From sequence record PQ352352.2: a stretch of DNA of 64,000 nt. One strand, written 5' to 3'. The position numbers were made by a program, and so were the translations under genes. Source of the stretch: Escherichia phage vB_EcoM_PTE-Eco15. Positions 34,175-34,372 of the stretch are shown here, piece by piece (positions within the stretch are counted from its first letter, which is position 1; the number at the start of each line of letters is the position of its first letter). The notes under the pieces are model-generated. The model was given only the letters and a program-made list of their open reading frames with translations. It was not told the origin of the DNA and did not search any database.

Positions 34175-34372
34175 CTAAGGAAAATTATGTTAGGTTATCA
34201 AGCACGAGTAAAAGAAGAATACGATCAATTAATGCACTGAGTAAATTTTTTAGAAAGCGCAAAGTTTCTAACAGTTAGTGCAGTTGAGCAAGAACTGCTA
34301 CTTTCACAGTTCATCTCAATGAAATCTTATGCTGAATGTCTAGAGAAAAGAATTGCACAATTCAAATAAAAT

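Follow-up and report, generated by a model that had tools for sequence, protein, structure and literature searches.

A probable strain-private denB.1 pseudogene between two C(UUCG)G hairpins downstream of rIIB in a T4-like Escherichia phage

The DNA analysed here, called the window throughout, is a stretch of 64,000 nucleotides from Escherichia phage vB_EcoM_PTE-Eco15 (PQ352352.2). The phage is T4-like (Tequatrovirus), and the window follows the T4 gene order, with rIIA at 31031-33208, rIIB at 33220-34158 and denB at 34669-35226, then ndd, stp, ac and gene 52; most of its genes encode proteins 95-100% identical to those of T4, and its best DNA matches are Tequatrovirus genomes, with an identity of about 97% across 8 kb and of about 95% across 24 kb.

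The locus of interest lies directly behind rIIB, and all of its features are on the + strand. The rIIB product of 312 aa is, along its whole length, 98.7% identical to T4 RIIB, and the gene is followed by a small unit that is bracketed by two identical hairpins of sequence AAGGGCTTCGGCCCTT, at 34157-34172 and 34373-34388. Both have the form AAGGGC-UUCG-GCCCUU with a C(UUCG)G tetraloop; the first, recovered in MFE and centroid folds, shares 2 nt with the rIIB stop codon, and the second is followed by TTGTTTT, and the terminator scan reports it with its UUGUUUU tail as an intrinsic-terminator-like element at 34373-34395. In the repeat search the two hairpins fall within a longer direct repeat of 26 nt, 92% identical between its copies (34147-34172 and 34363-34388). 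Inside the unit an AAGGA Shine-Dalgarno sequence (34177-34181), identical in relatives, stands 5 nt before an ATG at 34187-34189, from which 17 sense codons, translated as MLGYQARVKEEYDQLMH, lead to an in-frame TGA at 34238-34240. The same frame then stays open for another 42 codons (VNFLES...RIAQFK) and ends on a TAA at 34367-34369. Up to this point our reading of the ribosome binding site, the two parts of the frame and the bracketing hairpins agrees with the initial annotation of the locus.

Further downstream, at 34407-34736, there is a 109-aa ORF with its own AAGGA ribosome binding site, which matches Pfam DUF7418. This ORF lies between denB.1 and denB here and in most relatives and is deleted in T4, which keeps just its first ~12 codons, fused immediately upstream of denB (L003:2140-2245, minus strand). 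The denB gene itself is annotated in T4 with 185 aa and in relatives with 158 aa; its start in the window, at 34669, falls inside the 3' end of the DUF7418 ORF.

T4 has the gene denB.1 between rIIB and denB, a 195-nt CDS for a hypothetical protein of 64 aa (NP_049888.1, named 'ORF64' in the early T4 record D16359), and the phages slur03 and R5505 have this 195-nt CDS at the corresponding place. According to alignments to slur03 and R5505, and to the T4 sequence, which was read separately, residues 1-16 of the interrupted frame (34187-34240) are those of intact DenB.1, and the codons behind the TGA (34241-34369, with the TAA) are DenB.1 residues 25-64 except for the first two (VN). The uninterrupted ORF that the initial annotation proposed to look for in relatives is present in them, with 64 codons rather than 60. 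The interrupted ORF is a damaged copy of denB.1, one that is found in this phage genome only.

The damage itself consists of two indels. Relatives read GAT CAA TTA ATG CTC AAA ATT AAT GCA CTG AGC AAA TTT TTA GAA, that is D Q L M L K I N A L S K F L E, and the window reads at the same place GAT CAA TTA ATG CAC TGA GTA AAT TTT TTA GAA. In the alignments with slur03 and R5505 and in the T4 sequence, relatives carry a 9-nt direct repeat, AATTAATGC-TCAA-AATTAATGC, of which the window retains one lone copy at 34227-34235, with 13 nt lost. This deletion shifts the frame, so that ATG-CAC-TGA, taken out of ...AAT GCA CTG AGC..., is reached directly. Ten nucleotides past the deletion junction the T5 run of the relatives has become a T6 run in the window (34246-34251). 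With a net change of -12 nt, four aberrant codons (H, stop, V, N) are read before the ancestral frame sets in again; the 42 codons behind the TGA are open because the extra T restores the ancestral denB.1 frame. The suggestion that a gene had been inactivated here by one opal mutation can thus be kept as far as inactivation is concerned, while the TGA is a product of a 13-nt repeat deletion accompanied by a +1 T and not of a single substitution.

Both changes are private to this sequence, and they look young. A 3.37-kb alignment with slur03 contains 135 substitutions and 6 indel events, and the frame-breaking indels in its coding sequence are the two of denB.1 and no others; over the 351 nt from 34100 to 34450 there is one single substitution besides these two indels, so that the lesion is recent relative to the divergence of these phages. 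When a 71-nt junction query was searched against 50,697 phage records, 496 of them matched, the best with 83.3% identity, a difference made up by the two indels and nothing else, and neither indel was present in any of the 496. The exact junction patterns had no match in IMG/VR, in JGI metagenome contigs or in GTDB genome contigs, and an ectopic donor of the altered segment, as gene conversion would need, was sought within the window and gave the self-match alone. Other natural variants of DenB.1 occur in public assemblies: P0016, of 49 aa, has an in-frame deletion of 15 residues (LSKFLESAKFLTVSA), apparently between short GCA repeats, and P0003, of 64 aa, has EKRKH in place of DQLML. The helix-1/turn region of DenB.1 seems to be prone to rearrangement.

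A lesion that appears in no other sequence of any collection searched could also be an error of sequencing or assembly, in which one or both indels, and above all the additional homopolymer T, would not exist in the real phage DNA. Errors in the length of T runs are typical of several sequencing chemistries, and the extra T could in principle be one of them. Against such an explanation, the exact loss of one period of a 9-nt repeat is a signature of biological deletion and not of faulty base calling, and the 13-nt deletion suffices for the TGA, whether or not the T6 run is an error. The quality of the surrounding sequence speaks in the same sense. We compared about 100 T4 proteins, from two T4 stretches that match the window, and about 90 of them have a homologue in its 64 kb; denB.1 is the one gene with an internal stop among these, none of the others carries a frameshift, and nrdA is in two pieces just through an inserted homing-endonuclease gene. 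With no other broken gene among ~90, the window sequence must be of high quality and its error rate very low, and we consider an artefact improbable.

The two nrdA pieces are a 477-aa ORF at 60186-61619, corresponding to T4 NrdA 1-454, and a 329-aa ORF at 62365-63354, corresponding to residues 452-754; between them a 236-aa ORF at 61665-62375 encodes an HNH homing endonuclease 45% identical to T4 MobE. Of 514 matching phage records, 34 show this arrangement in their annotation, FL33 and fPS-90 for instance, and it resembles the 'genes-in-pieces' nrdA of phage Aeh1. T4 gene 39 matches over residues 1-473 only (28945-30363 and surroundings), and T4 60.1 and mobA have no homologue in the window, so that the large subunit of the topoisomerase is probably unsplit in this phage and free of the gene-60 bypass element. 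No tblastn match was found in the window for T4 dam, segA, rnlA, denA and nrdB.1, the last three of which may just be located past its end. The distal long tail fibre subunit gp37 (42952-45852) is just 63% identical to its T4 counterpart, beside a gp38 that is 100% and a gp36 that is 92% identical, a mosaic pattern typical of host-range modules.

Elsewhere denB.1 is kept under constraint. A tblastn search with intact DenB.1 returned 661 phage records, and in every one of them the match is one uninterrupted piece that spans 80% or more of the 64-aa query; about 500 of these are at 80-100% identity, and 165, from other genera, are below 60%. All Tequatrovirus rows among the matches listed cover residues 1-64. 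Pairwise dN/dS among eleven Tequatrovirus copies lies between 0.03 and 0.28, mostly at or below 0.15. The order rIIB, denB.1, a further small ORF and denB is maintained in Tequatrovirus, Dhakavirus, Gaprivervirus and Marfavirus, and the three other genera, too, have an unaltered LKINAL, the segment that the lesion destroys.

Intact DenB.1 matches Pfam PF21825, 'crAss001_48 related protein', with 68.7 bits over profile positions 3-60 of 61, and also PHROG 774. PF21825 is a widespread phage family. An exhaustive phmmer search of 1.84 billion cluster representatives found 167 clusters at E <= 0.001, nearly all of them stand-alone proteins of 60-75 aa. In a family alignment of 60 sequences E11, L15, L22, Q45, M49, Y52, L56 and R59 are invariant, and R7, K18, F25 and L42 are conserved at 90% or above. 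Both K18 and L22 belong to the deleted or replaced segment, and the spacing between L15 and F25 is shorter by 4 residues, so the conserved helix-1 residues of the family are not preserved in the window copy. An AlphaFold2 model of the intact protein (pLDDT 97.1) is a helical hairpin, with a helix at residues 3-26, a short helix at 29-33 and a helix at 36-61, and on this model the lesion would fall inside helix 1. The conceptual read-through translation nevertheless scores above the PF21825 cut-off of 24.8 bits, with 45.4 bits against the 68.7 of the intact protein, and so do the C-terminal 42 aa alone, with 36.5 bits. Searches for a function of the intact protein gave little: Foldseek of the model against the PDB returned generic two-helix hairpins, all at E > 0.6, the best hit of a sequence-profile search of the PDB had E = 0.69, PADLOC produced no match and NCBIfam nothing meaningful, and in the literature we found denB.1 mentioned once, incidentally, and crAss001_48 not at all.

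Taking these data together, we think it quite probable that the unit is a strain-private, recently inactivated denB.1 pseudogene of Tequatrovirus. We propose that intact denB.1 would be expressed from the rIIB-denB early region via its own AAGGA ribosome binding site, as a helical-hairpin protein of 64 aa, and that in this phage one 13-nt period of the direct repeat would have been lost through replication slippage or short-homology recombination. Ribosomes starting at 34187 should then release a 17-residue fragment, and the private +1 T, 10 nt downstream, returns the following 42 codons to the ancestral frame. From the sequence we infer that the window copy would be without function; a rare product of UGA read-through would be a 60-aa variant and probably a defective one.

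One feature does not fit plain decay so easily. Two private indels that lie 10 nt apart and together restore the frame are unlikely to be independent neutral events, and we estimate their chance, roughly, at a few per cent, an estimate that rests on the 6 indel events of the 3.37-kb alignment, two of which are in denB.1. Their proximity may point to a single complex mutation, or else to selection for a restored frame, in which case some read-through product would matter; the pair may also be a pseudo-reversion that failed or succeeded in part, or coincidental.

Selection for frame restoration would have a basis if the UGA were leaky. Low-level read-through would then supply a 60-aa DenB.1 variant, partly functional, with H-W-V-N in place of LKINALSK, and the +1 T would be a selected pseudo-reversion. 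Near-cognate decoding of UGA in E. coli is normally performed by tRNA-Trp; UGA is the leakiest stop codon in this host, and phage Q-beta makes use of UGA read-through. The adjacency of two private and jointly frame-restoring indels in an otherwise almost identical stretch agrees with such a scenario, as do the 45.4 bits that the conceptual product still reaches against PF21825 and the loss of 4 residues from a long helix, which, to go by the model, should roughly keep the helical register. Yet the UGA-G context is not notably leaky and the yield expected from it is about 1% or less; near-invariant K18, invariant L22 and the LKINAL motif that other genera keep would all be lost from the product; and a true revertant or an in-frame deletion would be a far better solution, the latter existing in the wild as P0016. 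A programmed read-through site should have its stop conserved in relatives, and a stop at this position is found at 0 of the 661 loci, at a junction that is private. The read-through option of the initial annotation is, accordingly, opposed by the sequence in any programmed or functional form, though biochemically it may still occur, and we regard a partly functional read-through variant as quite improbable. A step further, and in our opinion very improbable, the -13/+1 pair would be a natural second-site pseudo-reversion, selected since low-level UGA read-through supplies enough shortened DenB.1; if true, it would mean that denB.1 is relevant to fitness at a very low dosage and tolerates the loss of the most conserved motif of its helix 1.

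There is next to no likelihood that the unit is a genuine micropeptide gene of 17 aa or a site of programmed recoding at the TGA, such as a gene-60-type bypass or a prfB-type +1 shift. It does retain a good ribosome binding site and start, and T4-type phages are known for translational bypassing, annotated in gene 60 of T4. But its 17 residues are DenB.1 residues 1-16 plus a His, and no relative ends there; the peptide gene that had been suggested corresponds to the N-terminal portion of helix 1 in a helical hairpin of 64 aa. Folding of the unit is also no better than that of shuffled controls (z = -0.9), with nothing beyond the two hairpins, and an Rfam scan of the whole window had no match. 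The three frames around the TGA speak against each particular recoding scheme. For a gene-60-type bypass, in which CAC would be the take-off codon, neither CAC nor CAT follows in frame as a landing codon, the nearest CAC being out of frame and followed by TGA after 5 codons. A prfB-type +1 frameshift at CAC UGA G would enter a frame that reads GAG UAA. A -1 frameshift would add L S K F F R K R K V S N S (13 codons) before a TAG. Re-initiation has no in-frame ATG, GTG or TTG available before Met49 of the ancestral protein. The A-AAT-TTT heptamer formed with the T6 run sits after the stop and is for that reason irrelevant. Near-cognate read-through of the UGA would be the only route to a longer product.

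The hairpins on both sides are known T4 intercistronic C(UUCG)G elements and not a part of a recoding device. In each of them a C:G pair on top of a G/C stem closes the UUCG loop, and each stands on the transcribed strand. The 64-kb window contains 5 copies of their core, GGCTTCGGCC, where 0.02 would be expected, which is more than chance, and every copy is in sense orientation to the genes around it. The three further cores, at 2593, 4763 and 42932 (the last on the - strand), lie near the gene 45/44 boundary, between regA and gene 43, and downstream of gene 37/38 on the - strand. A hairpin at the rIIB/denB.1 junction exists in all four genera, with the stems AAGGGC/GCCCUU, GGAGGC/GCCUCC, GGGGC/GCCCC and GGGGAC/GUCCCC, all of them self-complementary; such covariation supports an RNA structure, and pairing that is kept through changes of the stem supports a role at the RNA level.

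The two hairpins differ in what follows them. The first has no U-run on the + strand; the second, with TTGTTTT behind it, has the form of an intrinsic terminator, and it occurs in the Tequatrovirus relatives checked but not in the three other genera. The annotation of R5505 gives both flanking hairpins as predicted terminators, and UFV13 (PMC5931544) has a predicted terminator at the site homologous to hairpin 2. Judging by their form and by published work, we infer that these hairpins may act in the formation or stabilisation of mRNA 3' ends. In the T4 reference (L003:2140-2500, minus strand) each of them is imperfect by one base (AAGGCTTCGGCCCTT and AAAGGGCTTCGGCCTTTT), and all other Tequatrovirus relatives checked have perfect stems; the T4 mismatches may be real variation or an old sequencing error. 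A scan for promoter-like sites on the + strand between 34100 and 34420 found none.

As to significance, the finding is one of ordinary gene decay, with features of a known kind and no new recoding signal. The locus should be annotated as a denB.1 pseudogene (frameshifted, with internal stop) rather than as a new small gene or a recoding site. It offers a clean natural case, in a T-even phage, of a deletion across 9-nt direct repeats with a subsequent homopolymer +1. The phage apparently lives without the conserved denB.1, and it may be explored as a natural knockout in studies of PF21825.

It is instructive to set the locus beside known systems. Hairpins with C(UUCG)G tetraloops were first described in T4 mRNA in 1988 (PMC4371310), and the two of the window are like them in stem, closing pair, loop and sense-strand position; nothing notable differs, except that hairpin 2 adds a U tract. 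PeSL (promoter-early stem-loop) cassettes bracket shuffled gene modules in T4-type phages (PMC2839356, PMC4122927). A small accessory ORF between two near-identical stem-loop repeats in a variable early region is reminiscent of them, but no early promoter stands beside the window hairpins and the gene is conserved at its site, not shuffled, across the genera checked; we rejected a PeSL reading, as there is no adjacent sigma-70-type early promoter on the + strand.

Like the A1 read-through of Q-beta, the locus combines, in an E. coli phage, an in-frame UGA with an open, protein-like frame behind it; it differs in that the stop occurs in no relative and the downstream frame is the ancestral gene. 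Another parallel in form is provided by the rII frameshift suppression of Crick and Brenner, with its +/- pairs and the identification of UGA as a nonsense 'barrier'. There, as here, close minus and plus frameshifts restore the frame and a UGA lies in the shifted interval; unlike there, we deal with a natural or stock variant of denB.1 and not with a selected rIIB revertant.

The closest known systems include T4 denB.1 with its family, PF21825. The window copy has the family's position, directly after rIIB and before denB, as well as the same ribosome binding site and start, its DNA is near-identical to that of Tequatrovirus relatives outside the lesion, and both halves of its reading frame match the family. 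In contrast to the 661 unbroken copies, it has a 13-nt deletion, a +1 insertion and a TGA at codon 18, and is without residues 17-24, so that in place of the uninterrupted ORF of about 60-65 codons that marks the family, 64 in relatives, it presents what we would classify as a disrupted, pseudogene member of PF21825.
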